Source: a virus (lineage: Duplodnaviria; Caudoviricetes). Taken from it: a stretch of 60,452 bases of DNA. Where the stretch lies: positions 1 to 60,452 of IMG/VR virus record IMGVR_UViG_3300042516_000861, one strand, 5' to 3'. The translations under genes were made by a program, and so were the position numbers. Shown here one piece after another: positions 17,752-39,862 of this stretch. The stretch's first letter is position 1; every line of letters begins with the position of its first letter. The notes beneath the pieces were generated by a model that was not told the DNA's origin, searched no databases, and saw only the letters and a list, made by a program, of their open reading frames with translations.

Positions 17752-19587
17752 TTATGCAATCGTGTATCTAATAATAACAAGACCTGAACCACCTGAACCG
17801 CCTGCTCTATTTGTTGAGCCACCATTACTTCCTGATGAAGAACCGCCACCACTTCCTGTATTTACAGTTGCACTAAATCCAGGAAGGGCAGGAACTGTAT
17901 TTACCTGCGAACCAGCACCACCGCCACCTGAACCACCTGCGCCTGCGGATTGACCAGAACCAGCGCCAGCACCACCGCCACCTGCGTAATAACCACTAAC
18001 ACCAGTACCAGTTGCGCTTGCCCAAGATGACCAAGTATTTAATCCTGCGCCACCAGCACCTGCTTGGCTACCAGCACCCGTTTGACCAGCCGCGCCAGCA
18101 CCACCGCCACCGCCAGCATTGTTTTGAGTTGCACCACCGCCAGCATTACCGTATCCAGTTCCGCCAGTTCCAGTTTGCGTTGTTGCGCCACCTGAAGCAG
18201 TTTGCATATCATACGCGTTATTTGCTCCACCACCGCAACCGCCAGCGACACCGTTTCTACTAGCACTACCATTAGAAGCACCACCACCGCCACCTTTAGC
18301 AAGAGTTAAAGAACCAAATTGTGAATCACCACCACTTGCCCCTGAAACTGCTTCATTATCGCTTCCAGCACCACCAGCGCCGACTGTAATTGTGTACCCA
18401 GTTGCCGTAAGTGATTGAGATGTTGCGTAGAAAATACCACCAGCACCGCCACCACCTGCTTGACGGACACCACCTCCTGCACCACCAGCAATTACTAATG
18501 TATCTGCGCTAAGTGATTGAGTTGGAGTAAATGTTCCCGAACCTGTAAATGTGTGATACCAATAAGTACCATCGTTAGTTACTGTTCCGCCGATTGCCTT
18601 AGCAAGATAAGAAGAAGTTGTATTAAATACACCCGATGAAGTAAATGTGTGAATCCAATAACCGCCAGAATTTACAACTGTATTACCGCCAGATGCTTTC
18701 TGCGTAGCAGATAAGTAACGAGCAATCACAATTCCTGAACCACCGTTACCAGCAAGACCAAGTGTTGCTAACTGCCCTGTGTAAGAGCCACCTCCACCGC
18801 CGCCACCTGTTCCCAAAGTTCCATTGCCACCGTTAATAGTTCCAGTACCGCTTGAACCTATCCCAGTTCCGCCAGCGCCACCACCACCATTACCTCCCGC
18901 GCCTGCTGACTGAGTGCCATAGTTGAAAGAACCGTAACCACCACCACCACCGCCTGCATAAAAAGTTGATGTTCCTGAAATAGAGTTTGCAAGTCCTACT
19001 CCGCCAGCACCGCAAATACCGTTGTTGCTTCCACCTGAACCGCCTGCACCGCCAGCACCGCCGCCACCGCCTGTAGATTCGCCGTAGCCTGAACCTGGAC
19101 CGCCTACACCGCCAGCGTTACCCTGTCCAGCGGGAGAAGCAGAGCCAGCAGTATTACTACCCCAACCACCACCACCTGAACCACCAGCAGCACCTTGATA
19201 CATCTCAGCGGTAACTGCTGTGCCATTGTTATATCCGCCGCCGCCGCCGCCGCCTGTTGATGTGGTGGAATTGAAACTTGAATTGTTGCCGTTACTTGCT
19301 GAAGGGTTTACAGCGTTAAGTTGCCCCCCGCCGCCAGCACCTACTATTACTGTGAAAGAAGTATCAAGTGCAAAAGATGCAGCACTTACTGTTCTATAAC
19401 CACCAGCACCGCCACCTGCTCCTGAAGCACGACCACCTCCACCGCCGCCTGCAACTACAAGGTAATCAACTGAGATTGATGAATCAAAACTTTGTTTCGC
19501 ACCAGTCAGCGTGATATTTCCAGTCGTCAAAGCAGATACCTGTGAGCCAGGAATCATTATGCGCTGTAAGCCGAGGTGTGGTGTCAT
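17752..19587 (-). CDS. Glycine-rich fibre protein
   Basis: Two units each running from YLVVAGGG-like to GGSGxVI(A/I)RY, with HTFTxSG motifs. Confidence 0.7.
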   Translation of the reverse strand: MTPHLGLQRIMIPGSQVSALTTGNITLTGAKQSFDSSISVDYLVVAGGGGGGRASGAGGGAGGYRTVSAASFALDTSFTVIVGAGGGGQLNAVNPSASNGNNSSFNSTTSTGGGGGGGYNNGTAVTAEMYQGAAGGSGGGGWGSNTAGSASPAGQGNAGGVGGPGSGYGESTGGGGGAGGAGGSGGSNNGICGAGGVGLANSISGTSTFYAGGGGGGYGSFNYGTQSAGAGGNGGGGAGGTGIGSSGTGTINGGNGTLGTGGGGGGGSYTGQLATLGLAGNGGSGIVIARYLSATQKASGGNTVVNSGGYWIHTFTSSGVFNTTSSYLAKAIGGTVTNDGTYWYHTFTGSGTFTPTQSLSADTLVIAGGAGGGVRQAGGGGAGGIFYATSQSLTATGYTITVGAGGAGSDNEAVSGASGGDSQFGSLTLAKGGGGGASNGSASRNGVAGGCGGGANNAYDMQTASGGATTQTGTGGTGYGNAGGGATQNNAGGGGGAGAAGQTGAGSQAGAGGAGLNTWSSWASATGTGVSGYYAGGGGAGAGSGQSAGAGGSGGGGAGSQVNTVPALPGFSATVNTGSGGGSSSGSNGGSTNRAGGSGGSGLVIIRYTIA

Positions 19588-19994: not shown

Positions 19995-21845
19995 TTAGAT
20001 TGCGTATCGAACGATAACAATACCTGAACCACCGTTGCCTCCAGGATAATCAACACCACGGTTTGAAGCGCCACCGCCACCACCGCCTGTGTTTGCGGTA
20101 CCGCTTGTAGGTCTAGTGGGAAGATTGCTGTTCAAATTGTTTGTACCACCGTTACCGCCACCACCTGCACCACCAGTTCCACCAGTAGGCGGAGTGCTAT
20201 TTAATTCATTTCCACCAAATCCGCCACCACCGCCTGCATAAGTAACAGTAGAGCCAGTAATTGTATTTGTTCTACCAGCACCGCCAGCACCGCCAACAGG
20301 CGCACCTGAACTTGTACCATTACTACCTACTGCGCCAGCACCGCCACCGCCACCGCCTGTGTATTGAGAGCCATCTTGACCATAAGATGCACCAATTCCA
20401 CCAGCAAAACCTTGATTTGTTGTGCCACTACCGCCAGAACCTACAGTTGGAGCGCCGCCGCCTGAACCGCCAGTACCACCACTTGCAACACCATCACCAC
20501 CAAGACCACCACCGACTGTTGAAATAGTTGTAAATGCTGTTCCTGCGATTGAAGATGCTCCACCCTGCGTAGCATTGGTACTGGCATTAGTAGCACCAGC
20601 GCCTCCAGCGCCCACAGTAATTGTGTAGGTAGTACCCGAGTTCATTGACACTCTTGATTCTGCGGTTCCAGGATTACCACCCGATAAACTTCCAACAGTA
20701 GAAGAACGAAGTCCTCCAGCGCCACCGCCGCCGCCAAAGTCGCCGCCTCCGCCGCCGCCGCCTGCGACTACTAAATACTCGACATTTGTAAGATTTGTTG
20801 TTGGAGTAAATGTTCCTGAAGAATCAAATATATGAATGTAATTAGTTCCATCAGAAAAAATAACACCGCCACTTGCTTTTGGACTAGATGGGGAACCGAT
20901 ACCTACGGCAAAAATTCCCGAAGATGTAAATGTATGAATATAAGTTGAACTTGTTCCGCTACCTGAAATAGTAACTGTTCCTCCAATAGCAAGTTGAAAT
21001 GGAGAGTTGTATCGGGCTATGACTATGCCTGAACCGCCTGCACCGCCTGTGGCTACTCCGCCTTGCCAACCACCGCCACCGCCTGAGCCTGTGTTAATAG
21101 TTGCAGCAGTTCCAGAGGCAGCAGGATTTGTAGTACCAAAACCACCAGTACCACCAATACCTGAACCACCTGCACCGCCCGCAGTTCCAGCAGCAGCACC
21201 ACCACCACCGCCTGCGTAGGTTACAGATGAACCAGAAATCGAGGTTGCTCTACCTGCACCACCCGCGCCACCAGCGTTAGCGCCAACACCCGCTGCACCA
21301 ACAGCAGCAGCACCGCCGCCACCACCCGCCGCATTAACGCCAGAGCCAGCACCGCCAGCAAAACCTTGACCTGATGGAGAAGCCGCGCCGCCTGTAGAAA
21401 CTGTTGTTGCTCCTTGAGCGCCGCCACCAGAACCGCCCGCCTGACCCGCCGTTGGTCCAGAGAAAAGTCCGCCTCCGCCGCCGCCTGTTGATGTAATTGT
21501 TGCAAAAACAGAATTGCTACCACTTGCTCCAACAGTATTTACAGGAGTTGCCGCACCACCAGCACCAACCGTAACTGTATAGTTAGTATTTGTTGTAAGT
21601 GATAATGCAGATTCTAATGCGCCACTACCACCTGTTGCAGTAACAGTAGAGCGCATACCACCAGCACCACCACCACCGCCTGCGCCAGCACCTCCAGCAC
21701 CGCCGCCTGCAACTACCAAATAATCAACTGAGGCAAGCCCAGTAAAAAAATTACTTTTAGCGCCTTGGGTCGTCAAAGCCCCAGTAAGCACAGATGAAAC
21801 TTGCGCTCCTGGGTTCGCTCCTAAAAGTCTGGTCGCTAAGGACAC
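19995..21845 (-). CDS. Glycine-rich fibre protein (paralogue of 17752-19587)
   Basis: Same two-unit architecture. Confidence 0.7.
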   Translation of the reverse strand: MSLATRLLGANPGAQVSSVLTGALTTQGAKSNFFTGLASVDYLVVAGGGAGGAGAGGGGGAGGMRSTVTATGGSGALESALSLTTNTNYTVTVGAGGAATPVNTVGASGSNSVFATITSTGGGGGGLFSGPTAGQAGGSGGGAQGATTVSTGGAASPSGQGFAGGAGSGVNAAGGGGGAAAVGAAGVGANAGGAGGAGRATSISGSSVTYAGGGGGAAAGTAGGAGGSGIGGTGGFGTTNPAASGTAATINTGSGGGGGWQGGVATGGAGGSGIVIARYNSPFQLAIGGTVTISGSGTSSTYIHTFTSSGIFAVGIGSPSSPKASGGVIFSDGTNYIHIFDSSGTFTPTTNLTNVEYLVVAGGGGGGGDFGGGGGAGGLRSSTVGSLSGGNPGTAESRVSMNSGTTYTITVGAGGAGATNASTNATQGGASSIAGTAFTTISTVGGGLGGDGVASGGTGGSGGGAPTVGSGGSGTTNQGFAGGIGASYGQDGSQYTGGGGGGAGAVGSNGTSSGAPVGGAGGAGRTNTITGSTVTYAGGGGGFGGNELNSTPPTGGTGGAGGGGNGGTNNLNSNLPTRPTSGTANTGGGGGGASNRGVDYPGGNGGSGIVIVRYAI

Positions 21846-28098: not shown

Positions 28099-28340
28099 TT
28101 GCGCTTTGGAGGTCTTAGGATGTCCATGTCATCCATCCACTTTGGGTCATCGGCATCCAATTCTTCGTATTCTTCTTCTGAGTCATCATTGTGGGAATGA
28201 AGTTTCTTTGGACTCTTTGGGTTCTTTGGCTCGGAGGAATCTTCACCTTCGGAGTCATCAGGGCTGTACTTTCCGTTCGCCCACGCACCATGGGAGCCTT
28301 GGTCGTGGCTACCGTGCTTAGATACTCCTACTTTTTTTTT
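28095..28340 (-). CDS. -1 frame extension of 28328-28732 carrying tag copy 10 and an acidic peptide
   Basis: Not in the ORF track. KKKVGVSKHGSHDQGSHGAWANGKYSPDD...RPPKRK*; no own start codon; begins at an A9G run. Confidence 0.7.
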   Translation of the reverse strand, partial: KKKVGVSKHGSHDQGSHGAWANGKYSPDDSEGEDSSEPKNPKSPKKLHSHNDDSEEEYEELDADDPKWMDDMDILRPPKRK

Positions 28341-28732
28341 AGTGTTGAGACTTTGTGACCAACCTTTGTTTCAGTTGGCTTTCCATCTCGGTACAACTGA
28401 ATCAGAGCGGCTGGGTCATCTTCGCTTCCCTCAATAGAAAAACTTGAATCAGGAACATTGATTTTGCCATCGCGCACGATACGCACAATCTTGCCTGTAG
28501 CCGTACCGCCTGATGAATTCCAAGAAACCATGTCGCCTCTGGATACAGAGACAGCCTTTTTCATTTCGTAAGCCATGTCGCGCATAGCCTTTTCAATCAT
28601 AGACTTTGCGTAACCCTTGAGACCAGCGATTCCCTTTTCATCAACTTCTTTTTCAATCATCGCGTATTCATCGTCCTTCATGCTTTTCATGGGACCATTG
28701 CGAAGTTCCTTGAGAATCTTTTTGTCTTTCAT
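28328..28732 (-). CDS. Head-region protein with C-terminal Hva1/DUF2945-like Tudor domain
   Basis: GDMVSWNSSGG...GSEDDPA...HKVSTL pattern. Confidence 0.6.
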   Translation of the reverse strand: MKDKKILKELRNGPMKSMKDDEYAMIEKEVDEKGIAGLKGYAKSMIEKAMRDMAYEMKKAVSVSRGDMVSWNSSGGTATGKIVRIVRDGKINVPDSSFSIEGSEDDPAALIQLYRDGKPTETKVGHKVSTLKKK

Positions 28733-29430
28733 GTGGTTTCCTTCGGCTTCTTTTTCTTTGGGTTCATAATTGTATCAACATGGACACTATTGACTCCTGG
28801 ACCATCTTCCTTCTCAACTTCTTCCATATCAACATAAAGGCGCTCTGCCTTACCGCCGATTGAATAGCCAAGAATCTTTCCAGACTTTACCAAGTCCCAT
28901 GCCCAAGGCTCCCAGATAACACCGAGAAATACTGTGTTTGGTGGGTATGTATGGTTTACATCAATCCCGCTTATTGTTTTAATTGGAACTGTTAATTCGT
29001 ATGGGAACGCCATAACTTCTACCCATTCTCCAGCAACCACATCGCGGTCATGCTGTAGACGGATACGGCGGTCATTAGTCTTTACATAATCCCAGACTGC
29101 TCGTTGCAACTCATCGGCATCTGTCCATTCACCATGGGCATCAATACGGTCTGGAATATACATAGCCCCTAGCGTGTAACGCTTAGCATCTTCAGCCTTT
29201 GAAACTTCATAGGCTCCAATGCTCTTAGGCGCTGCGAAAGCATCTGGGAATGAACTCATTGCAAGGGCTTCAGTAATCTCCTCATAGTCACCTTCGCCCA
29301 TAACTAGATAGGCTGAAATAAGGCGAGTCGGTGTCCATCCCTGTGTTGGGTACCAGCGCTCCTCATCAATGATGTTGAAGCGATAGAGGTTATGGGGTAA
29401 ACCTCTGCTCATCTTTACGAAATATCTCAT
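28729..29430 (-). CDS. XkdF-like prohead serine protease with an extra N-terminal domain of about 65 aa
   Basis: YIPDRIDAHGEW, LQHD, VKSGKILGYSIGG motifs of the XkdF/Peptidase_S78_2 type. Confidence 0.8.
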   Translation of the reverse strand: MRYFVKMSRGLPHNLYRFNIIDEERWYPTQGWTPTRLISAYLVMGEGDYEEITEALAMSSFPDAFAAPKSIGAYEVSKAEDAKRYTLGAMYIPDRIDAHGEWTDADELQRAVWDYVKTNDRRIRLQHDRDVVAGEWVEVMAFPYELTVPIKTISGIDVNHTYPPNTVFLGVIWEPWAWDLVKSGKILGYSIGGKAERLYVDMEEVEKEDGPGVNSVHVDTIMNPKKKKPKETT

Positions 29431-32144
29431 TTGACCACTTCTCTCTTAAAGGTAAGTTTATCAACCAGGGTTGATTTAATCAAGCCAGCCTCTTGAGCCG
29501 TCTGGAACTGCTGAAGAACAAGTGTTCCCGTAGCGATAATTGCTCCGTAGTTTGCTGGACGAACAACGCCTTTGGCAATGTCAATCATCTGATTCCACAT
29601 ACTTTCTCGGGTCGAATCATTCAACTCAACCTGATATTTCTTGTAGATAGGGTGCGTTCCGCCTTCGCCTTCTTTATGAGCAAATGAACTCGGCGTGTGT
29701 AATTGAATCTCTACCTCAATGCCGTCTTTCCTTGCTTTGATATTAACTCCATCGTAAGGGTCGCCAGATTGCCAGAAATTCTTAACTCGTAATGTGAAGC
29801 CAGATGCCTCAAGAGCCTTTATTGTTGAATCAAGGGATTGAGCGTAATTCTCATCGCCAACTTTGAGCGTATAGCGAACTGCATCCGAGACAGCATCAGC
29901 CGCTCTTGACCTATCGCCATCAAATTCTGTAACTGCATCGCCATCAATTTTGCGAGCCAAAGAATCTGTTGATTTTACTCTTTGTTCCAATTGGACAAAT
30001 TCTCCGCCAGCATTTTCCTGGATGACTTTCATCAACTCTGTAACTTTTGGTTCAACCGCAAGCGCTCTTTCTCGGATACGCTTTGCTTCGGCAACTGCCT
30101 CTGCTGACCATTGTGGTCTAGCCATAACATCTGGGGCTAATGGTGGGACATCACCAGTCACATTCATAGCCCATGAGCCGTGTTTCTTTTGGTCATGCTC
30201 ACCATGCTTTGCGACATCTGACCAAGCCTTGCCGTCTCCAGAAAGAACATCAGAGTGTTGAAGGTTTTGCTCAGGAAACATATCTCTGTGGAACTGAAGC
30301 ATTGCTGAAGCCAAGCCTCGGCGTTGATGTGCAGGTTTCACAATCGCTTCATAGATTGTTGCAAAATTATCGTTTTTTGCGGATGTTCGCGCAACACTTC
30401 CAGCACCAGGCGGAAGAACCTCTATTTTTCCTACTATCAATTTGGCTATTTTCTGTCCCCATCCATCAATGGTTGTCCCATCGGTAGGTTTTTTAAGGGC
30501 AAAAATTTCACTCCCTTTTCCACCTTGGAGAAAAAGCACATAATCTGTTGGTTGTTTTCCTTCAGGCTGATAACGAACTACTCGCGTATTCTCATTGAAG
30601 AATTCATTAACGCCATCGTTCTTGCCAATGATGGTTAATTTCGGTGAACCTGAAGCAGCCCAAGAACCGTGTGTGGATTGGTCGTGTTCCTCATGTTTTG
30701 TAAGAGGTTTCCACGCAAAAGATTTCTTTGCGGGTGCATCAATAGCCTGTGCTTCAAATCCGTTGGCTGTAGACCATTCAAGAGAAATATCTAGCGCTTC
30801 TTGTGCTGTTACTGATAAACGATAAACAGGTAATTTAGTGCCAGGATTATCAAAGGCAAAAGCAACTGAAGCGCCCCATGTATGGTGACCGTCAATTACG
30901 AAACCATCGCTGGAAATAAGGATTCTTTCTTTTTCTGGAATTCCACCATCCTCACGGAATTTATTGTAAATCGCTCCAGAACGAGCAGCAGAAATTTCTT
31001 TCTGAACTGGTTTTAATGTGGTTGGGTCAATTTCTTCAGCCGTTGATGTAATGCCGTCAGACTTTTCAATTTCAGCAAGGAAGCGACCTCGTTCTTTTCC
31101 AGGAATCTGCGGCATATCTTTGCGAGCAATTCCCATACCTTCATCGCCATATAACAATGTTCCTTCAACACTTAATTCAGTAAGGTCTGGGTGGTCATCT
31201 CGTTTCGCCGCCGACATGAGAAAGGCTGAGACATTTTCTTTCTCAACTGTTGGGTGACCGCCATCCAAAATTGCTTGAGCAATATCGTCAGCCCATGAGC
31301 CGTGAGTCTTTTGGTCGTGCTGTCCCTGATTATGTTTTGCGACTTCTTTTTCAGCCCGAGCAATCATGGTTTTAGCCCAAGTAAATCCTGCATCGCCGCC
31401 CCAGGCATCCCAGGCAACTCGACCCGCTGAAGGGAATCCCTTTTCGCCTTGGCTAAAACCGATAGCCTCTTTGTCTACTTCGTGGCGAGCCAAAAATGAT
31501 TTCATTCGCTTCAGGGTTGCAAGCGAAACACCTTCTCCAGATGCCAACTGACCAGCGCGAGAGCGACCAATACCAGTAAAGCCGTCTCCAGCCTTGCCCT
31601 CAGAAATCCAATCAAGCGCTCTGCGGGCTGCGGTGCGGACAGCCATCGGAGGTATGTAACTATCTGACTTCTTAAATTCGTGCATCTGCGCTAAGCGCTT
31701 ATCAGCCTCAGCCTTTGTGTTATATGTGCCGAACTTTCTTTTGCCTTCCTCGTCATAAACTGTGTACTTGCCATCCTCACGGCGAATCATTTTGTTTAAT
31801 TCTTCAAATGGCTCTAAGCGCATTTCATAACCAGTAGTGGTCAAAAATAACTGGACATCGGCAATCGCTGAACCTGTAGATTTAATAACATCGGCAATCA
31901 TGTCGGCTGGGAGTGAGCCAGCAAGGGCTTTGAGATTGGCGTTTTTCATTGTGTCTACGAGGATTTCGAACTCATCCCAGACATCGTTCTCAGGCGCTTC
32001 TAGCCCACGGCGCAACATCTCATTGACGGCAAGGTGATGGACTTCTAATACTTCTGGGGTTGCCTCTGACTTATGTAGGCGTTCATGCAAGGCGCGTAGT
32101 TTATCTGCGCTTAACTGGATTAGTTTTGGTGCAATATCAGCCAT
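29427..32144 (-). CDS. Multidomain polyprotein: head-associated modules, tag-ParB/Srx-like, tag-GNAT, tag-RelA/SpoT-like synthetase
   Basis: Three tags; ILISSDGFVIDGHHTW (ParB); HQRRGLASAML (GNAT motif A); RVKSTDSLARK, DAVRY, YDGVN, EIQLHT (RelA/SpoT Syn motifs). Confidence 0.8.
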   Translation of the reverse strand: MADIAPKLIQLSADKLRALHERLHKSEATPEVLEVHHLAVNEMLRRGLEAPENDVWDEFEILVDTMKNANLKALAGSLPADMIADVIKSTGSAIADVQLFLTTTGYEMRLEPFEELNKMIRREDGKYTVYDEEGKRKFGTYNTKAEADKRLAQMHEFKKSDSYIPPMAVRTAARRALDWISEGKAGDGFTGIGRSRAGQLASGEGVSLATLKRMKSFLARHEVDKEAIGFSQGEKGFPSAGRVAWDAWGGDAGFTWAKTMIARAEKEVAKHNQGQHDQKTHGSWADDIAQAILDGGHPTVEKENVSAFLMSAAKRDDHPDLTELSVEGTLLYGDEGMGIARKDMPQIPGKERGRFLAEIEKSDGITSTAEEIDPTTLKPVQKEISAARSGAIYNKFREDGGIPEKERILISSDGFVIDGHHTWGASVAFAFDNPGTKLPVYRLSVTAQEALDISLEWSTANGFEAQAIDAPAKKSFAWKPLTKHEEHDQSTHGSWAASGSPKLTIIGKNDGVNEFFNENTRVVRYQPEGKQPTDYVLFLQGGKGSEIFALKKPTDGTTIDGWGQKIAKLIVGKIEVLPPGAGSVARTSAKNDNFATIYEAIVKPAHQRRGLASAMLQFHRDMFPEQNLQHSDVLSGDGKAWSDVAKHGEHDQKKHGSWAMNVTGDVPPLAPDVMARPQWSAEAVAEAKRIRERALAVEPKVTELMKVIQENAGGEFVQLEQRVKSTDSLARKIDGDAVTEFDGDRSRAADAVSDAVRYTLKVGDENYAQSLDSTIKALEASGFTLRVKNFWQSGDPYDGVNIKARKDGIEVEIQLHTPSSFAHKEGEGGTHPIYKKYQVELNDSTRESMWNQMIDIAKGVVRPANYGAIIATGTLVLQQFQTAQEAGLIKSTLVDKLTFKREVVK

Positions 32145-32175: not shown

Positions 32176-32322
32176 TTATTTAGTTTCCTCTACCTGGATT
32201 AGATTCATCTCTATCATCTTATCCAGAATAGCAATTTCTCTTTCATCTGGAGGACCAGAAATATCTGAGGGCATAGAGGCATTAACCTTGGCTATCGCCT
32301 TGAGTCTTTCTTGTCTTTTCAT
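32176..32322 (-). CDS. 48-aa ORF, candidate immunity protein for the upstream GNAT
   Basis: Not in the ORF track. MKRQERLKAIAKVNASMPSDISGPPDEREIAILDKMIEMNLIQVEETK*; starts 1 nt after the upstream stop. Confidence 0.6.
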   Translation of the reverse strand: MKRQERLKAIAKVNASMPSDISGPPDEREIAILDKMIEMNLIQVEETK

Positions 32323-32323
32323 A

Positions 32324-34240
32324 CTATGATTTTACCGCACTTGCTGGCTTTTCTCTAGCGGTGCCGTCATAGACCAAGCCATCGCCATCTCTATCAACTG
32401 GACCTTCAAAGAGATTTCTGCCTTCAGGGGTAAGAATCTTCACATAATTAAGATTGAGGCTATCGAAAAGCCTCTCGCCAGCCCAAGTTACCGCCTTCTT
32501 TGTATCGCCAGTAACAGGGTGTTCGTAATCTGATGTAGTTCTGTCTTTGTAACCAATCATCACGAAATCGCTAGGCAAAGGAAAGTCATCGTTCTTTAGG
32601 TCTTTTATAGAATCCCAACGCGCTCCGTTTTCATCAGATACATAACCATTAGTAGCCCTACGCATAAGGGAATCAAATTCTTCTCTGGCTGGCTGACCAA
32701 AATCAAGTTCATCAGCACTATTCATATTAGTGATTCTGTTTACAACTATATGTTTAAAATCAGAGTCAATTTCTTCTGGTTGCCAGTCAAAACCGTCACG
32801 CGCCCACACGCGAGCGCCGTCCCAGCCAGTTCCAACTGTAATAGCGCCAAAACCTCTCTGGGTATACCAATCTTCGGAGCGGTCAATAAATTCTTTACCG
32901 AACCCTAAACCTTTATAGTCATCGTCAAGTTTTAATAACTTATGTTCTACTATCCAGACCCCATCTTCTTTATAGAATACTCGCTCGAACTCACCAGCAT
33001 AGTTTCCATTGGAATCTTCAATGTTGCCTTTTACGCTAATGCCCGCATCACCTGTAGGTGTATCGCTAGTCAAGTCCACATATTGAATCTCGGAACTCAG
33101 CGTAGTAACAGCATCGCCAACAGCATTTACTACGGTGTGGTCTGTATTGAAGATTTCTTCGAAATATGGAGTTACATTGGTGAGCATTTGCTCGGTACTT
33201 TCACCTCCGTTTTGGTCCATCCATAGCCCTGCAAGTTCTCCAGGCTCGCTGTATTCAATAAGTTCATCAATCATTTCCGCTTGGACATCTTCATAAATAG
33301 TAGATTTTTCTTGCTCTGTGTACTCATGGTTTGGGAATTCTTCTTGGAGTCTTTCCAGTCGCGCACTCACTCGACCATCAATTCCCTCGGTGGCTTGTGA
33401 ATATAAACCAGGGTCGTTCTCGACAAGCATTTTTAAGTCATCATAACCTGGTCCTTCTCCGCTGCCTTCCAGGATTGCATCTAAATCTTCTAGCGCTGGT
33501 CCTAGAGTGGACATTGCCTCCATGCGACCAATTTCTTCATCGGTGTATCCAGTAGCCCAAGAACCATGTGTTTTTTGGTCATGCTCGCCGTGTTTCAAGA
33601 CAGGGATTAACCCAGCCTCAAAACGAATTACTTTGTAGGCTTTGCCAACTTCTCCCAGATTTTTTGGGCGTAGGCTTCGATTTCCGAATCGCTCATATCC
33701 GCGATGTTGGCTGGCAGTTCTACCGCTTCCAGTTTTTTCGACATTACCTGTTCCTCCTGTTTCGATTTCAGCGAAGTTAGTTACATCCCAAATAGAAATT
33801 TGGTCTTGCTTTTGCCCTGCTGAGATTGCTCTCTCTCTATCTTGGATGTTTTCCGATACATCAAGATAAACCTGTCCATCGTCCTTATTATGCCATAACC
33901 CCAGGTAGTTTTTACCACCGCCGAGTTCTGCCTTATGTTTCTTCATGTAATCAGCAAGAATCTTTGGACCCTTGATTGGGTCATAGAAATCATCGGCAGA
34001 TACGACAGAGCCGTATTTAGCGCCCTTAGCGACCATGTACCCGCTAGTAGGTTCTGAGCCATCCACCATGTTTACGGAAAGACCGCCGTTCTCACGAACT
34101 CGGCTTAGGATTGAATCGGCAACTCCAGCGCCCATGCCACCAGTAGCCCAGTTTCCGTGGGTCTTTTGGTCGTGGGTGCCGTGTTTCTCCATAACAAGGG
34201 TTAGCCCCTTGCTTGAGTCATAACCAAAATTTTCAATCAT
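32324..34240 (-). CDS. Polyprotein: leader, tag-unknown domain, tag-acidic region plus GNAT, C-terminal DGDG motif
   Basis: Two tags; YKGLGFGKEF...GARVWARDGFDW GNAT; DRDGDGLVYDGT. Confidence 0.75.
   Translation of the reverse strand: MIENFGYDSSKGLTLVMEKHGTHDQKTHGNWATGGMGAGVADSILSRVRENGGLSVNMVDGSEPTSGYMVAKGAKYGSVVSADDFYDPIKGPKILADYMKKHKAELGGGKNYLGLWHNKDDGQVYLDVSENIQDRERAISAGQKQDQISIWDVTNFAEIETGGTGNVEKTGSGRTASQHRGYERFGNRSLRPKNLGEVGKAYKVIRFEAGLIPVLKHGEHDQKTHGSWATGYTDEEIGRMEAMSTLGPALEDLDAILEGSGEGPGYDDLKMLVENDPGLYSQATEGIDGRVSARLERLQEEFPNHEYTEQEKSTIYEDVQAEMIDELIEYSEPGELAGLWMDQNGGESTEQMLTNVTPYFEEIFNTDHTVVNAVGDAVTTLSSEIQYVDLTSDTPTGDAGISVKGNIEDSNGNYAGEFERVFYKEDGVWIVEHKLLKLDDDYKGLGFGKEFIDRSEDWYTQRGFGAITVGTGWDGARVWARDGFDWQPEEIDSDFKHIVVNRITNMNSADELDFGQPAREEFDSLMRRATNGYVSDENGARWDSIKDLKNDDFPLPSDFVMIGYKDRTTSDYEHPVTGDTKKAVTWAGERLFDSLNLNYVKILTPEGRNLFEGPVDRDGDGLVYDGTAREKPASAVKS
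33628..33744 (-). CDS. 38-aa gene nested out of frame inside the 32324-34240 polyprotein
   Basis: AGGAGG RBS 8 nt before ATG; MSKKLEAVELPANIADMSDSEIEAYAQKIWEKLAKPTK*. Confidence 0.65.
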   Translation of the reverse strand: MSKKLEAVELPANIADMSDSEIEAYAQKIWEKLAKPTK

Positions 34241-35012
34241 TTACTAACTCCACATCCCAGACTTTACCTTCATTATTGAGGATTTTGAACTTACTATCCC
34301 GAGGTAGAAGGAACTCTGCCTCTCTTGAGAATTGAGATTCTATGCCTGTAACGCTCGCGGGGAAAACCCCTTGCGTACCAGCGGGTAACTTCATGCGGAG
34401 AACGATGCCCTGATACATTCCACTTTCAGCGTTTGCGAACTTTGCACCCATCGCAGGGTCAAGGCTAGTAGAAGAAAATCCTTTGTCGGAATAAACATCC
34501 CCAACTTTTAACGCCTCGAAAAAATCTAATCCATTGCCTTTTACTCCACGGTACACAGTTATAGGGCTATCCAGAGGTGGGGCATACTCGATTGCTCCAT
34601 CTAAAAGAGCGATTGTGGTCGCAACACCATCTGTGCTAATAACTGGGTCACGGAGCGCTTCGTTTATTGTGTATCCGAGCATACTTTGGTAGGTATCAAC
34701 AGCGCGTGTGAACATACTGCCAACTACCCTGTGTCTAAGAATTGTGTCCATAAAAGATAATTCTCTGTCTGTATCAGAACCTAATTTAGCAATTTCAGAG
34801 TCACGCCATGCAACCAAGTCTGTAACAACCTCGCTACCAGTAGCCCAGTTTCCATGAGTCTTTTGGTCATGTTCGCCGTGCTTAGCAACTGGATTAACAA
34901 TCCATTTAAGGACTGCTCCGTTGGTTTGAGCCATGTAACTATTGAACTGGGCTTGAGTAAGGCTTTTGCGCTTGCCAGTAACAGGGCTATCAATAACAAT
35001 TTCACTTATCAT
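34233..35012 (-). CDS. Tagged VIP2-like (R-S-E) ADP-ribosyltransferase
   Basis: VYRG, GFSSTS, EAEFLLPRDSKF motifs after the tag. Confidence 0.85.
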   Translation of the reverse strand: MISEIVIDSPVTGKRKSLTQAQFNSYMAQTNGAVLKWIVNPVAKHGEHDQKTHGNWATGSEVVTDLVAWRDSEIAKLGSDTDRELSFMDTILRHRVVGSMFTRAVDTYQSMLGYTINEALRDPVISTDGVATTIALLDGAIEYAPPLDSPITVYRGVKGNGLDFFEALKVGDVYSDKGFSSTSLDPAMGAKFANAESGMYQGIVLRMKLPAGTQGVFPASVTGIESQFSREAEFLLPRDSKFKILNNEGKVWDVELVND

Positions 35013-35925
35013 CCCTAGTCACCTCAATCCCTGCTTTCTCAAGAAGTGCAATCGTATCCTCACCAACAATAGAAAATCTCTGTAATCGTACAGATTTAAT
35101 ATCACTCAACCTCACCCCTCCATGAATCTGCGCTTCAAAATAGTCAATATCTCTAATTGTTCTTACAGACCTAATTGGTCGTGATACTGTAGTCATATTT
35201 CTTTGAAAGTGACGGCTTCGGTAGGCTGAATCTACTTGCTCAAGACTTAAATTACCTTTTCGAGCATCTGTTACTAAAACTGGTGTTAAGCCGTGATTAG
35301 CCGAATCTCCAGGAGAAATCGTTGTTCTACCAGCAACCTTATCTTTCAAGATTATTTTTACATCACCGTATGAAAGTGTTTCATTTTCGACTGATGGTTG
35401 AAGTGGGGTGTCGAAATATCCGTAAATTGGACTATTTGCATTTGTAGGCTGACCCCATAAACCTTTTTCCAAGTCGTAGCGACCCTCGTTGTATTCAATT
35501 TCAAATCCTAGTGTTGGTTCAGGCAATTCTGTAAGACTCTTAAAACCACCATGCTCAACTATTTTTCTTAGTTCTAAATCTCCTGACGAAACTCTTATAG
35601 CGATAGGAGCCTCGGCTACTTGTTGCAACTGACTTCTACCCAAGTTTAATTCTTCGGAACTTAACTCTCTAGCCGTTAGTCTTTCTTGTTCTTTGAACTC
35701 AGGCTTCCACTCATAAGGCATAGCATCAAGACCAGACTCGCTAGAGCCTTCAGCCCAATTACCGTGGGTAGATTGGTCATGTTCTTGGTGCTTTTCCATC
35801 TTGTCAAAGAAATCTTCGACTCTGCCGCCTTCTAAAAGATGGGCATAGTAAGCGTTAAAATCTTCTTTGTTGAGGTTATTGGCTAGGTAAGCGTATCGCC
35901 TTGATTGTGCAGGAGTAGTCATCAT
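35002..35925 (-). CDS. Tagged DUF3626-like (ART-fold) protein
   Basis: PIYGY, YGDVKIILK, RTTISPGDS, YFEAQIHGG motifs. Confidence 0.7.
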   Translation of the reverse strand: MMTTPAQSRRYAYLANNLNKEDFNAYYAHLLEGGRVEDFFDKMEKHQEHDQSTHGNWAEGSSESGLDAMPYEWKPEFKEQERLTARELSSEELNLGRSQLQQVAEAPIAIRVSSGDLELRKIVEHGGFKSLTELPEPTLGFEIEYNEGRYDLEKGLWGQPTNANSPIYGYFDTPLQPSVENETLSYGDVKIILKDKVAGRTTISPGDSANHGLTPVLVTDARKGNLSLEQVDSAYRSRHFQRNMTTVSRPIRSVRTIRDIDYFEAQIHGGVRLSDIKSVRLQRFSIVGEDTIALLEKAGIEVTRDDK

Positions 35926-37424
35926 TCACCAACCGCCTTTTCTGCAACTGTAAGCATTGACCTATCTAAAACTACATAAATGCCGCGCTTGTCATCTTGG
36001 ACATGACCAGCATCGTAATACTGATAGCCCATAGCGGCAAGCCTTCTACCGACATTATTACGGTGAGACTTTTCCCCGCCCCAGACCATTTCCTTCATAA
36101 CTGTTTTTACAACTTCGGCTGTTGGCGCTTTGGCTGTATCAGGAATCATCATTGCCATCACTTTTCCGTTACCCAATTTATTGTTATCGGGGTCTACATC
36201 GTCAGCATAACTTTGAGCAGAATCAAGAAATGATGTTGTGTATGTTCCATTACCAAAGGCTCCCCAGCCTCCAAAATACTCGCCCTCTCTAAAATCGGTG
36301 AGGGCTTGCTCTGCCGTATAGGTCACTTCGCTATCTCCAGTAGATGAATAATCAGCGATGCCTCGAAAAACTATAAATCCACCTCCCTGCTCGGCTGATA
36401 ACTTTGCTAAATTCTCTAAATCCTCAAGTGTTTCTACAGTTTTTGGTTTCTCAGTAAAGCCTTGGCGCTCGGCAATAATCTTGAGCGCATTATCACCGTA
36501 TGCTTTGCCAGCGGTGGTTTCTGCAAAATCCATATTCTCGATTAAATCTAAAGTCTCAACATTATTACCAGCGGCTCTAACGGCTGCTTCGATGGCTATT
36601 CCAGGGGTATTTTGAGTCAGCGAACTATTGATGATGTTTAATTTTTCTTTGAAAAAGACCTCATCGAGCGCTTCAGTAATATCAACTCCAGCGCCACCGC
36701 CGCCTGCCCATGAGCCGTGTGTGCGTTGGTCATGTAATCCTTGGAGGTGCTTTTGGACTGCCGTTCCAATATCTGTCTTATTAACCGTTAATTTATCGGC
36801 ATTGAATAAAACAACCTCAGCCCTACCTGTTTTGTAAATTGAATAACCGTCATAACCTTTTGCCGCCCAGTAGATATTGGCAATGTCAGAATCAGAGAAA
36901 TTGTCCATCTTTCCAGAAGTAATTCTTTCTATAATCTTCGGCATATCTAAAGATGTTTCTTTATCAAAAAGACTATACGCTTTACTCCAAGCAATTTCGC
37001 CTTCAACCAACTTAACGCTTTTATCTAATTTCAAGCCTATAAGGTCTCCATACGCAGCCGCATATTCTGGTTCAGATGAGATATAAATTCCTTGACCCCA
37101 AGTTTGAAATGGAGTGAAACGAATTTCTCCATTTAATAAACTTTGAGCCTGTATATTTACATCTGTAACCCCACGGAAAAAGTTAATTTCTTCTTCTGAC
37201 AAATCTTCAAGTTTAGGCTTCATGCTCTTGCCTAAGCGCTCGGCAACCTTTTTATACATCTCATTAACTGTGGTAGAGCCAGAGATAATATCTTTGATTT
37301 CATCATCGGATAATTCGCTGGATGAGCCTTGGGAACCTTCAGCCCAATTACCATGAGATGACTGGTCATGTTCCTGATGTTTGAAAACTGGGATAAGCCC
37401 AGGCGCGAACTTGATTACCTTCAT
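35922..37424 (-). CDS. Polyprotein with two tagged ADP-ribosyltransferase-like domains
   Basis: Likely start MKVIKF at 37424 (ATGA overlap with the MuF stop); FFRG..GQGIY..AAAY..GYDG..EVVLF and VFRG..FGNGTY..AQSY..GYQ..YVVLDR. Confidence 0.7.
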   Translation of the reverse strand: MKVIKFAPGLIPVFKHQEHDQSSHGNWAEGSQGSSSELSDDEIKDIISGSTTVNEMYKKVAERLGKSMKPKLEDLSEEEINFFRGVTDVNIQAQSLLNGEIRFTPFQTWGQGIYISSEPEYAAAYGDLIGLKLDKSVKLVEGEIAWSKAYSLFDKETSLDMPKIIERITSGKMDNFSDSDIANIYWAAKGYDGYSIYKTGRAEVVLFNADKLTVNKTDIGTAVQKHLQGLHDQRTHGSWAGGGGAGVDITEALDEVFFKEKLNIINSSLTQNTPGIAIEAAVRAAGNNVETLDLIENMDFAETTAGKAYGDNALKIIAERQGFTEKPKTVETLEDLENLAKLSAEQGGGFIVFRGIADYSSTGDSEVTYTAEQALTDFREGEYFGGWGAFGNGTYTTSFLDSAQSYADDVDPDNNKLGNGKVMAMMIPDTAKAPTAEVVKTVMKEMVWGGEKSHRNNVGRRLAAMGYQYYDAGHVQDDKRGIYVVLDRSMLTVAEKAVGE

Positions 37425-38431
37425 CGGGTTCCTCGGTCTGGAGGGATGATAACGAAGGTACAGCGGCAATTAGGGTGGACTATGGGCTTCTCCAGCCCGA
37501 TAGAGAACAGACCAATCCAAGGGACGACTTCTCCATTCAAAGGCGCACAAATGTCGCAGGTGCGCTCGTCTGGGGCTGTAATCCACATCTTCATAGTTGC
37601 AGGGTCTATGTATCCCGCTTCATCGGCTTGGCGATAGCCTTCCATTCGCCCTTCATTCTGGGCTATCTGAATCTCTGTGCGAGCAATCATGCGAGCGCGA
37701 GCGCCCTTGAGCCTGTCTGCGTAGGCTGTTGCAGATTTCTGAGCGCGTTGGATTGCTGTAGCCTCTTTGATACCAGCCGCGATGAGACGGTCTAGTTCTC
37801 GAATCTCGAACTTTCGAACGGCATCTGCCCACTTAGGGTGGAGACCAATAATGTTTTTAATTCGAACTGCCGTGCGGCGCACATCAATCTGCTCATTGAA
37901 TGAATCAATAATTATCTTACGGATTGCCTGACGGGTAAGGTCGTCAATACTTGTCACCAACTGCCCAGCCCTGCGAGCAGCAAAGGCTAGTGAATTAGGG
38001 TTTGTTTTATTAAAAGAAAGACTGAAGGCAACTGGTTCTGGATTAACTCTTGCCCAATTCGGAATCTTCGTAAAGTCCATATTTGCCATGGATTCAGGAT
38101 TTGCAATTCGAACTTGGGTAGGCGTAAATGCTGGCAGCGCCAAAACTGGAGCAATCTTTTTCAATCCTTGGATTGCTTCAACTCCACCGATGTCAATGAT
38201 GCCGAGCAACTCGGCTTCAATCTTAGGAGCATCACCATTGACAGAGATTGCTCTAAGCAAGCGGTCTAAGGTATCTGCATCTAAGCGACCAAGAATCTTT
38301 GCCAACTCATCCACTTTGATTTTGTCGGTTGCATTACGAATCGCATTAACGAGAACGCGAGCCATCGCCGCTTCTTCGGCGGTTAGAGGATTTCTGGAGC
38401 CATCTGAGCCAGAGCCAAAACTAATTGCCAT
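37421..38431 (-). CDS. MuF / SPP1 gp7-like head morphogenesis protein
   Basis: RARMIARTE, W..APDERTCDICAPLNG, HPNCRC. Confidence 0.9.
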   Translation of the reverse strand: MAISFGSGSDGSRNPLTAEEAAMARVLVNAIRNATDKIKVDELAKILGRLDADTLDRLLRAISVNGDAPKIEAELLGIIDIGGVEAIQGLKKIAPVLALPAFTPTQVRIANPESMANMDFTKIPNWARVNPEPVAFSLSFNKTNPNSLAFAARRAGQLVTSIDDLTRQAIRKIIIDSFNEQIDVRRTAVRIKNIIGLHPKWADAVRKFEIRELDRLIAAGIKEATAIQRAQKSATAYADRLKGARARMIARTEIQIAQNEGRMEGYRQADEAGYIDPATMKMWITAPDERTCDICAPLNGEVVPWIGLFSIGLEKPIVHPNCRCTFVIIPPDRGTR

Positions 38432-38434
38432 GCT

Positions 38435-39862
38435 CTACTCCAAATCGCCGTCTAGCGGTTCCTGTCCTTCTGGAATTTCAAGTTCTTCTTCCAGAGATGG
38501 CGGTGCATCAAATCCTTGAGCAGCAGCCCCTTCAGCGCCAGGCATTGCTGGAGCGCCGTAGGCTTCTTGTCCGTCATGTTCGGCAGGTGGTAATCCAGCC
38601 AAATCGCGTAAGTAATCTTCCAACTTAGGGTCTGGCATAAGAACGCCAGCGGTAGCCAACTTGGAAATGTAATCTGCAACCTCGGTCAAATCAATATGGC
38701 TTACTTCTCCGTATGTGAGGAATGGGGCGCGTGAGACATCCATTCCGTTTAGTTTCATAAGGCGAGGAATTGCATATTGATTAAATACTTCAGCAATGTT
38801 CTTGGCGATTGCATCAACTGACATTGACCATAAATCCATCTTTGATGAACCTAGGGCGTATGAACCTACGCGGTCTGAGCCTAGAAGAATAAAGTCTGAA
38901 AGGATTGACATAGACATGCGCTGGTCGTAGCGCTGAACAATTTTGTCTGTATCAAATTGGCGTGAGCCGCCTGATGATAGGAGAACTAAGTCGAACTGCT
39001 TATGTCCTGCATCATCATAAAGTGTTGGAAATACAACACCCTCTTGCTCATTGCGCTTGATAGATGTAACGATGTTTTGAACTGTCGAAAGAACATTTGC
39101 TTGCTCGGCTGTAGCCGCACTTGATAAATACTCAGGCGGTACATAGGCAACTGGCAATCCTGCTAGGTCGCGTTCAATACCGACTGCTTCGATTTCTTCG
39201 ATACGGCGCTTGAAGAACCAAGGGCGGTATGCGTTACGAAGGATTGAGCGACCCTCTGGGTTATTTTTAGCCGTAGTTGTACGGAATAGCAGAGCCTTCT
39301 CGATAGGGATGATGTGAGTGCCGCCCGATGATGGGTCGGTCTGCTCCATCGCTTGAATTCCACCGCGCTCGTCAATCTGCCAACGGAATAAAGTTTCTTG
39401 GGAACGGATAGGCAATTTACGCCATCCGATTTTATTATCTGTGTGCTTAGAACGCTTAGATGGGTCTTTTGCCTCTGGACCTGTACGGACTTTGTAAACA
39501 ATTTCGTTGTAGGAATATCCGTAAACGAGCATTGAGAGAATTTGAGAAAGTGTCTGGTCCCATGAATCCGACATATCGTGTAAGCAAGAATCTATGAACG
39601 CTGCTACTTCTTCATCTTCAGGCTTTACTTCACCATCTACTGAATTATCGGAATATGGGTCTACGCGCCATTCAAGGCGTGTAATAACTTTCTCAATCGC
39701 ATAAAGCATTGAGCCGATTGTTGGGTCATTGTCAGCCATCTCACGATAAACGCGAGCGCCACGAAGTCCACGAAGATTAACAAGGAATTCTTCATAAACC
39801 GTTCCACCAGAACGGCGTAAACCCGTAGAGCCGAGTTCTTGTAAATCTGGCTTTTCTGCCAT
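38435..39862 (-). CDS. Portal protein (Mu gp29/DUF935-like)
   Basis: YGYSYNEIVY, NPEGRSILR, GSYALG motifs; upstream of MuF. Confidence 0.88.
   Translation of the reverse strand: MAEKPDLQELGSTGLRRSGGTVYEEFLVNLRGLRGARVYREMADNDPTIGSMLYAIEKVITRLEWRVDPYSDNSVDGEVKPEDEEVAAFIDSCLHDMSDSWDQTLSQILSMLVYGYSYNEIVYKVRTGPEAKDPSKRSKHTDNKIGWRKLPIRSQETLFRWQIDERGGIQAMEQTDPSSGGTHIIPIEKALLFRTTTAKNNPEGRSILRNAYRPWFFKRRIEEIEAVGIERDLAGLPVAYVPPEYLSSAATAEQANVLSTVQNIVTSIKRNEQEGVVFPTLYDDAGHKQFDLVLLSSGGSRQFDTDKIVQRYDQRMSMSILSDFILLGSDRVGSYALGSSKMDLWSMSVDAIAKNIAEVFNQYAIPRLMKLNGMDVSRAPFLTYGEVSHIDLTEVADYISKLATAGVLMPDPKLEDYLRDLAGLPPAEHDGQEAYGAPAMPGAEGAAAQGFDAPPSLEEELEIPEGQEPLDGDLE

Follow-up and report, generated by a model that had tools for sequence, protein, structure and literature searches.

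The virus record IMGVR_UViG_3300042516_000861 (Duplodnaviria; Caudoviricetes), 60,452 bases long at an estimated completeness of 99%, was analyzed over its full length, referred to here as the window. Its minus strand encodes a head module in which a portal and a MuF-like head protein are followed by five cargo genes (g1 to g5), a protease open reading frame (ORF), a Hva1_TUDOR protein, a scaffold-like protein, and the major head protein (Table 1). The cargo genes are built from modules, each headed by a tag of ~16 aa (consensus hydrophobic-x-K-H-x-x-H-D-Q-x-x-H-G-x-W-A) that occurs inside genes as well as behind N-terminal leaders. It is these leaders that concern us here, together with a free 48-aa ORF downstream of g4 and the N-terminal domain of the protease ORF: the long leaders (classes E and G in the window; F, D, and I in related phages), the 48-aa ORF, and the protease-ORF domain are trailing peptides, each belonging to the toxin-like domain encoded upstream of it.

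The cargo genes are packed stop to start, with ATGA overlaps at the MuF/g1 and g1/g2 junctions and overlaps of 11 nt (g2/g3) and 8 nt (g3/g4). This layout, including the 48-aa ORF behind g4, had been read from the window alone in an original prediction and is confirmed here, as are the lengths that it gave for the pre-tag leaders, which, counted to KH, amount to 44 aa in g2 (MMTTPAQSRRY..), 43 aa in g3 (MISEIVIDSP..), and 18 aa in g4 (MIENFGYDSSKGLTLV..). That the leaders are unrelated to one another, as was also claimed, holds with a qualification: those of g2 and g3 align at 41% over 53 aa (E 1e-7), in a stretch that includes the tag.

The label ‘toxin’ is secure for domain C0 of g3 and, judged by homology, for C5 at the end of g5; for the other cargo domains it is plausible. 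C5 matches the MuF C-termini of Streptococcus pneumoniae, Mannheimia, and Pasteurella phages at 29-36% identity (tblastn) and would, from this kinship, be a toxin domain of the (p)ppApp-synthetase type. The domain names proposed earlier fared unevenly: the VIP2-like ADP-ribosyltransferase (ART; C0) is borne out by PF03496 (7e-18 in one Pfam search and 3.3e-18 in another), the DUF3626-like assignment of C11 stays below the Pfam threshold (E 0.016), the second ART (C12, at the end of g1) is an Atlas lead, and the GNAT domain (C2) is a weak lead. For C12, the Atlas points to ART-PolyVal (PF18760) clusters at 0.88-0.89, below the 0.9 line; searches for Pfam and PDB matches returned none, and the AlphaFold2 (AF2) model reaches a predicted local distance difference test score (pLDDT) of 42. 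C10, which precedes C12 in g1, resembles a C12 paralogue by its motifs, and both matched the same domain of the related locus L087. At least two effector segments share a polypeptide in three of the head genes (two in g1, two in g4, four in g5), their domain identities being mostly leads. No toxin is fused to the C-terminus of MuF in the window, where MuF and g1 are separate genes. A MuF-linked array of head-packaged effector domains is the best explanation of the cargo genes. Close relatives were absent from the GenBank phage collection by megablast, and tblastn matches in that collection fell on domains only, never on leaders.

Table 1 Features of the head module and its cargo array in the window
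Feature	Position	Strand	Remarks
Portal	38435-39862	-	
MuF-like head protein	37421-38431	-	Pfam PF04233 4.3e-14; phrog_3517 5e-56; between portal and array
g1	ORF 35922-37469, likely ATG start 37424	-	class A pre-tag (14 aa), tag, C10, tag, C12
g2	35002-35925	-	leader E, tag, domain C11
Leader E	35794-35925	-	44 aa, of g2; after C12 in 10/10 junctions, before domains of 4 different families
Tag core HDQSTHGNW of g2	35755-35781	-	
C11 (g2)	35005-35751	-	DUF3626-like, Pfam sub-threshold (E 0.016); in tagless phages, relatives form the C-terminus of MuF fusions
g3	34233-35012	-	leader G, tag, domain C0
Leader G	34884-35012	-	43 aa, of g3; after C11 (G clade) in 7/7 junctions
C0 (g3)	34236-34841	-	VIP2/exoenzyme-type ADP-ribosyltransferase; Pfam PF03496 3.3e-18, 66.2 bits vs cut-off 23.4
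g4	32324-34240	-	leader B first; domain C2 at end; 2 tag-delimited segments
Leader B	34187-34240	-	18 aa, of g4; after C0 (B clade) in 30/30 junctions
C2 (g4)	32327-33553	-	GNAT-like lead: PDB acetyltransferase E 0.033; Atlas 0.92, PF00583 on 20% of members
Free 48-aa ORF	32176-32322	-	1-nt gap after g4
g5	29427-32144	-	4 tag-delimited segments; ends in C5
C5 (end of g5)	29430-30167	-	RelA/SpoT-type alarmone-synthetase-like (Apk2tox-like); PDB 8vx3 (SaSAS) 3.4e-10
XkdF-type protease ORF	28729-29430	-	ATGA overlap with g5 stop
N-terminal ~68-aa domain of protease ORF	29227-29430	-	iapK position, after C5; fused to XkdF-type protease
XkdF-type head protease domain	28729-29226	-	Pfam PF14550 6.1e-12, residues 75-197
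Hva1_TUDOR protein	28328-28732	-	
Other nine tag cores	37344-37370, 36708-36734, 34845-34871, 34148-34174, 33557-33583, 31293-31319, 30660-30686, 30171-30197, 28281-28307	-	

A scan with MuF returned 183 relatives, of which the best 80 loci (59-99% identity) were kept; their arrays were cut at the tags, with blastp (E<1e-5, coverage 0.6) used to group the domains and blastp-short the leaders. The resulting set holds 126 leader junctions from 56 loci, many of them closely related, which means that the counts are not independent. The original prediction had the leaders co-occur with the toxin family upstream rather than with the domain to which they are fused, and this is how the junctions fall: each of the 11 leader classes with n>=2 is confined to one domain family on its upstream side, as opposed to 2 of 11 on the downstream side, and the mutual information of leader class is 2.07 bits with the upstream and 1.14 bits with the downstream side. 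Classes E and M follow C12, F and G follow C11, D and I follow C4, B, C, and H follow C0, J follows C20, and L follows C25. In maximum-likelihood trees of C12, C11, C4, and C0, classes E, M, F, G, D, I, B, and C each occupy one clade (F/G 100/99, D/I 100/100), inside which the downstream domain varies; class H needs 2 changes on the C0 tree in a quick, unfinished analysis. A programmed frameshift merging the array genes into a polyprotein was ruled out, as offsets differ within a junction type (0, -1, and -4 in class F).

This outcome is not decisive, because recombination at the tags alone would yield the same co-inheritance. The tag core, H-D-Q-x-x-H-G-x-W, occurs in 10 copies in a six-frame translation of the 60 kb window, far beyond chance and all on the minus strand between 28281 and 37370; in the 80 related loci, all tags likewise lie on the MuF strand, downstream of MuF. 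Homology blocks between the window and five relatives (blastn) end at window-relative positions 213, 819, 1807, 3367, 6896, and 7341, and 42-nt tags begin at 171, 807, 1760, 3367, 6855, and 7344. The block ends thus fall at tags, which identifies the tags as crossover points, and sequence between two tags consequently moves as one unit, functional or not. The 3′ junction type is fixed for each domain family, as either a short in-frame linker or a stop followed by a leader. The units shuffled by recombination between tags each comprise a tag, a domain, and all sequence from there to the following tag. The mobile unit proposed earlier—tag, toxin, stop, immunity—is upheld to the extent that tag, domain, stop, and trailing peptide move together, with the peptide, a putative neutralizer, going with the upstream domain.

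The leaders might accordingly be passengers, i.e., pro-pieces or linkers that supply a start codon beside the upstream stop and a tag context for capsid targeting or cleavage, and that co-travel via tag crossovers. Homology blocks that end at tags and a fixed 3′ junction type per domain family are what this account predicts. At most junctions the leader is short, at 14-25 aa (A, B, C, H, J, L). The shortest of these, the 14-aa pre-tag of class A, comes after the non-toxin MuF in 74 loci and has a similar sequence before the internal tag of g4. A hydrophobic residue two positions before KH is common to the leader tags (99% of 134) and the in-frame tags (95% of 111) of related phages. Against it stand the strong purifying selection along the entire leader, the conservation of leader E beyond that of the adjoining domain, and the existence of G and F families as free small ORFs behind the same toxin family, with no tag to serve. 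On balance, we consider it somewhat unlikely that the leaders are such passengers.

The selection is plain from codon analysis: the leaders are constrained over their whole length, with ratios of nonsynonymous to synonymous change (pN/pS) in the own frame of 0.19 for E, 0.26 for G, and 0.33 for B, versus 0.95-5.76 in the two control frames of these three; over all leaders the own frame gives 0.19-0.56 and shifted frames 0.61-5.76. Because pN/pS is low in the own frame only, the leaders are real translated sequence rather than extensions produced by ORF calling. Mean column identity is 87% for leader E versus 72% for its upstream domain C12.

The free forms emerged from a survey of C11, which gave 78 loci with a C11-like domain (23-82% identity), 68 of them evaluable and 10 running off their contig. 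The domain ends its ORF in 49 of the 68 loci, and the ORF that follows belongs to family G in 18, to family F in 16, and to neither in 15. Among the family G members, 10 are fused to an HDQ tag and cargo, 3 to a second, GRF-type tag and cargo, 3 are free-standing at 70-102 aa, and 2 are longer; among those of family F, 12 are free-standing at 57-102 aa, 2 are HDQ-fused, 1 is longer, and 1 is open-ended. The free-standing G members are in L126, L128, and L169, whose contexts were inspected by eye along with that of L164. The MuF fusions of L088-L091 have a C11-like domain at their end (E down to 3e-54), and the small ORF behind each is of leader family F; F leaders and free F-like ORFs align with an hhalign probability of 98.9% (E 3e-17). 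MuF-toxin fusions are present in the tagless loci L087-L090, L110, L126, and L164. No candidate for leader G as a free protein was found in a set of 5.8 billion proteins, the free form coming from the C11 survey. Because family G stands free after the same toxin family elsewhere, leader G of the window is the fused form of a small gene. A fused-partner architecture is thereby well supported for G; it has support for F as well, is plausible for E and the 48-aa ORF, and is unsupported for B.

A profile of leader E retrieved 20 matches from 1.84 billion proteins, 19 of which have E at residues 1-43, the remaining one (P0017) being a spurious repeat protein. P0018 (67 aa, on a 40-kb contig) and P0019 (69 aa) are leader E-like and tagless, and in two further matches E is followed by a tag of the type K-Y-N-P-x-H-x-x-x-G-R-F. 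The tagless loci L087 and L110-L112 each have a MuF fusion with a terminal C12-like domain (E 6e-10 to 1e-13) and, behind it, an ATGA-overlapping ORF of 76-83 aa. In tagless relatives, a motif TVTPKFS(I/V)..EDED ends small ORFs located before the protease or scaffold gene (L087 5929-6177, L088 2276-2479, L090 2602-2823, L091 4131-4310), either as an ORF of its own or fused behind an E-like or F-like peptide.

The 48-aa ORF is the one case in which a small ORF (under 150 aa) directly follows a toxin-like gene in the window. It is kept at 48-59 aa in 31 of 31 loci with a junction between C2 and a g5-like gene. Its pairwise identity tracks that of the last 150 aa of C2 (Spearman 0.68) rather than that of the first 150 aa of the next gene (0.20). 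Pairs of loci with a like C2 tail (>=0.85) and an unlike small ORF (<0.5) did not occur, as compared to at least 10 pairs with a like next gene and an unlike small ORF.

Behind C5, at a junction that the original prediction did not list, the trailing peptide is joined to a different kind of neighbor. PMC12226406 describes prophages of S. pneumoniae, Mannheimia, and Pasteurella in which two genes come behind apk2, namely iapK, encoding a binding immunity protein, and aph1. The corresponding phage records have a MuF gene, then a 69-72-aa ORF, then a phosphohydrolase. In the window, the place of iapK is taken by the 68-aa N-terminal domain of the protease ORF, predicted to fold into four strands, a helix, a strand, and a helix (AF2 pLDDT 83). 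It is present in 20 of 20 related loci in which the protease ORF follows C5 (or C46, in L072); across IMG/VR it is fused to the protease in 12 of 13 loci, and free forms exist as ORFs of 69-77 aa on 10-20 kb contigs. The domain aligns to the iapK-position ORF (gp05) of Mannheimia phage vB_MhS_1152AP2 at 35% over 57 aa (BLASTP E 1e-5) and, profile against profile, to IapK-position ORFs with an hhalign probability of 33% (E 4.5e-4). With its profile, the three IapK-position ORFs rank among the four best of 772 six-frame pieces, and the reverse profile puts the domain first of 1087 window pieces, in both cases with E 0.3-1. IapK-position ORFs had no PDB relative by sequence. We regard the domain as probably homologous to IapK; it would then be an immunity domain joined to the next gene without a tag, and the fused-partner architecture probably extends to it. 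In L104, the one IMG/VR locus that departs from the fusion, an in-frame TAA stands at codon 27 of the IapK-like domain (2501-2581), the frame being otherwise intact; possible causes are a sequencing error, decay into a pseudogene, and recoding of the stop.

We read the leaders and the other trailing peptides as the immunity of the upstream toxin-like domains, a reading to which we give just short of an even chance. A small gene that stands separately behind the toxin in tagless phages has, for family G in this lineage, become fused in frame to the next tag and cargo. Its product would be the cognate immunity-type binding partner, keeping newly made toxin from acting in the cell that produces it, the way IapK restrains Apk2, and stop-start coupling directly after the toxin would fix the stoichiometry. 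The XkdF-type head protease may then cut at the tag, freeing the peptide from the next cargo inside the capsid. The internal proteins and Alt of phage T4 carry a capsid targeting sequence that is cut by the prohead protease; it is from this precedent, and from the protease gene adjoining the array, that we infer cleavage at the tag. The original prediction had immunity n fused to toxin n+1 and later cut off at a putative Lys site, which would interlock the array. A more far-reaching version, which we deem unlikely, is a chain in which every immunity peptide would serve as an N-terminal pro-piece of whichever packaged protein follows, the head protease itself bearing the final one, and procapsid cleavage at the tag would arm the toxins. 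In such a chain, the toxins would be masked in the producer and armed only once encapsidated, and the tags would double as crossovers at which toxin-immunity units are swapped as intact cassettes. The fusion of a trailing peptide to the next gene that underlies it is backed by family G (and its sister F), found free after the same toxin family elsewhere, and weakly by the IapK-like head of the protease ORF, and it is unsupported for leader B, of which no occurrence outside the tag system was found.

Pairwise co-folding, proposed earlier as a check, lent weak support in the case of C12 and leader E, which scored 0.34 (runs 0.00, 0.57, and 0.34), the best of 3 controls scoring 0.00; the share of contacts common to the runs is at least 0%, and the partner has a pLDDT of at least 46. 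Among 157 solved complexes, 116 attain the mark, as do 2 of 215 mismatched pairs; with scores of <=0.60, only 18 of the 157 attain it, along with both of the passing mismatches. The weak co-fold thus raises the odds of the immunity reading only a little.

Several results weigh against immunity. Recombination at the tags explains the joint inheritance of leader and upstream domain by itself, and the domains preceding leaders E and G, C12 and C11, are putative toxins only. In-frame joined domains (C10, C8, C13, C1, C6, C7) lack a trailing peptide, implying that a neutralizer is not a general need. The class A pre-tag directly follows MuF itself; leader B, at 18 aa, is tag-linked in 21 and cut by the contig end in 2 of 23 relatives of its C0 clade, free-standing in none, and may be a mere start-codon-bearing pre-tag piece. 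Leaders had no Pfam matches and weak PHROG matches only, and the 48-aa ORF likewise nothing above noise in these collections. As for the free forms, the next ORF lies outside F and G in 15 of the 49 loci in which C11 ends its ORF, 10 of these 15 being free small ORFs; P0018 and P0019, the free relatives of leader E, are known without their surrounding genes, and searches with P0019 gave L087 and L088 only. The small ORF behind C12-like domains in tagless phages was not demonstrably E-like (hhalign 9% and 1.5%, E 0.033). The 68-aa domain gave no BLASTP alignment to the S. pneumoniae iapK-position ORF, nothing significant by tblastn against the phage collection, and no PDB fold match in Foldseek. 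Nor is there an aph1-type (HD-type) hydrolase beside C5, its neighbors being, by Pfam and PHROG, an S78_2 protease and the Hva1_TUDOR protein.

Binding to the upstream domain need not mean inhibition, as the trailing peptides might be chaperone or docking pieces that tie separately translated cargo proteins back into a chain to be packaged together, or that deliver the toxin to the procapsid. The weak co-fold of C12 with leader E is in keeping with this, the leaders are found precisely at the points where the polyprotein is interrupted by a stop codon, and the occasional fusion of free peptides to TVTPKFS(I/V)..EDED before the protease or scaffold gene (L087, L090) suggests an adaptor. However, the free F and G peptides of 57-83 aa have nothing attached that they could tether, and the one validated relative by position, IapK, is an inhibitor (PMC12226406). 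A docking role appears rather unlikely to us. That the leaders are an artefact of choosing the first start codon, the true starts lying just before the tag (e.g., MEKH), is very improbable: g2 and g4 do have a Met three residues before KH, and Shine-Dalgarno-like motifs are uncommon upstream of leader starts (e.g., 2 of 9 in class E and 2 of 16 in class B), yet G lacks a Met near the tag, ATGA-type overlaps are conserved, E-like sequence begins at residue 1 in 19 of 20 library proteins, and the pN/pS analysis (0.19-0.56 over the full leader versus about 1 in other frames) led us to reject mis-called starts.

Under the immunity reading, the array is a variant of MuF toxin-immunity and polyvalent-protein systems, its tag and fused layout being new relative to the papers searched. 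Like T4 internal proteins and Alt, its packaged enzymes bear a short N-terminal piece and are encoded near a head protease gene; unlike in T4, conservation lies in the tag, found at internal sites as well, the pre-tag piece is variable and tied to the previous gene, and cleavage is a conjecture. Contact-dependent inhibition (CDI) and Rhs loci contain arrays of orphan toxin-immunity cassettes. There, too, recombination exchanges toxin-partner units by way of a common sequence in front of the toxin, but these cassettes are not known to be translated as successive overlapping genes, or to have an immunity gene joined to the toxin that comes next.

Jamet et al. 2017 (PMC5576092) proposed a layout in which MuF polymorphic toxins have a small immunity ORF downstream. 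The window resembles it in that the array lies in the head module beside MuF, with variable toxin-like C-terminal domains each directly followed by a small coding unit, and the tagless loci L087-L091, L110-L112, L126, and L164 have exactly the layout of MuF-toxin plus small ORF; the window differs in that MuF is a separate gene, the modules are serial and tag-headed, and the small unit sits on the N-terminus of the next gene instead of being free. With Apk2-IapK-Aph1 (Paulet et al. 2025, PMC12226406), it shares a RelA/SpoT-type domain at the end of a head-module gene, a stop-start overlap, and a domain of ~65-70 aa with a weak likeness to iapK-position ORFs, whereas that domain is fused to the head protease, has no adjacent Aph1-type hydrolase, and is only weakly alike (E 1e-5, hhalign 33%). 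Polyvalent proteins (Iyer et al. 2017, PMC5512222) likewise combine several effector domains (ART, GNAT-like, ParB-like region, RelA/SpoT-like) per polypeptide, are encoded within head-gene regions, and have been predicted to enter the capsid and be injected; in the window, by contrast, the array is split into overlapping genes with a repeated tag per module, and neither tag nor partner peptides are mentioned in the passages of PMC5512222 drawn on. A literature search for the tag strings HDQKTHG, HDQSTHG, and NPYHD gave 0 occurrences, and neither the tag nor the fused leader layout was found described in the papers searched, a search that left aside the additional files of PMC5576092, which may list comparable small ORFs.

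Head-packaged effectors are the first strike of many phages at the host, and how they are kept harmless during assembly is little known. If the leaders are immunity peptides fused to the next cargo, this would explain how one phage carries several toxins in series. It would also provide a partner-finding rule for uncharacterized toxin domains, namely the first residues of the next gene, and would make the tag a candidate processing and recombination signal. Function aside, the tag-delimited cassettes are a clear case of modular evolution in injected proteins.

The second tag type, (K)-Y/F-N-P-x-H-D-x-x-G-R-F-x-x-G-G, occupies the place of the HDQ tag in P0007, P0020, L116, L127, L133, and L169, and in L116 HDQ and GRF-type tags stand in tandem behind a G leader; the two may be variants of one signal. 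At the end of the Hva1_TUDOR gene (28328-28342, CTA AAA AAA AAG TAG on the minus strand), a slippery run A_AAA_AAG is followed by the TAG stop. The tenth tag and a 60-aa acidic tail lie past this stop in the -1 frame, which is open to 28095, and they lack a start codon to themselves. L007, L019, and L085 (MuF 60-99% identical) retain this arrangement, and L015, L022, L024, L035, and L069 have an in-frame fusion, making the gene end a candidate for a programmed -1 frameshift or for transcriptional slippage, either of which would yield two products. In L037 and L078, the g5-like gene stops after C7, the next gene consists of the Tudor N-terminus, a tag, an inserted domain, and the Tudor domain, and the protease ORF is absent from its usual place.

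Away from the head module, the neighboring tail-region genes at 17752-19587 and 19995-21845 (611 and 616 aa) match phrog_2295 over their C-terminal halves (1.9e-93 and 5.6e-97) and look like a tandem paralogue pair.

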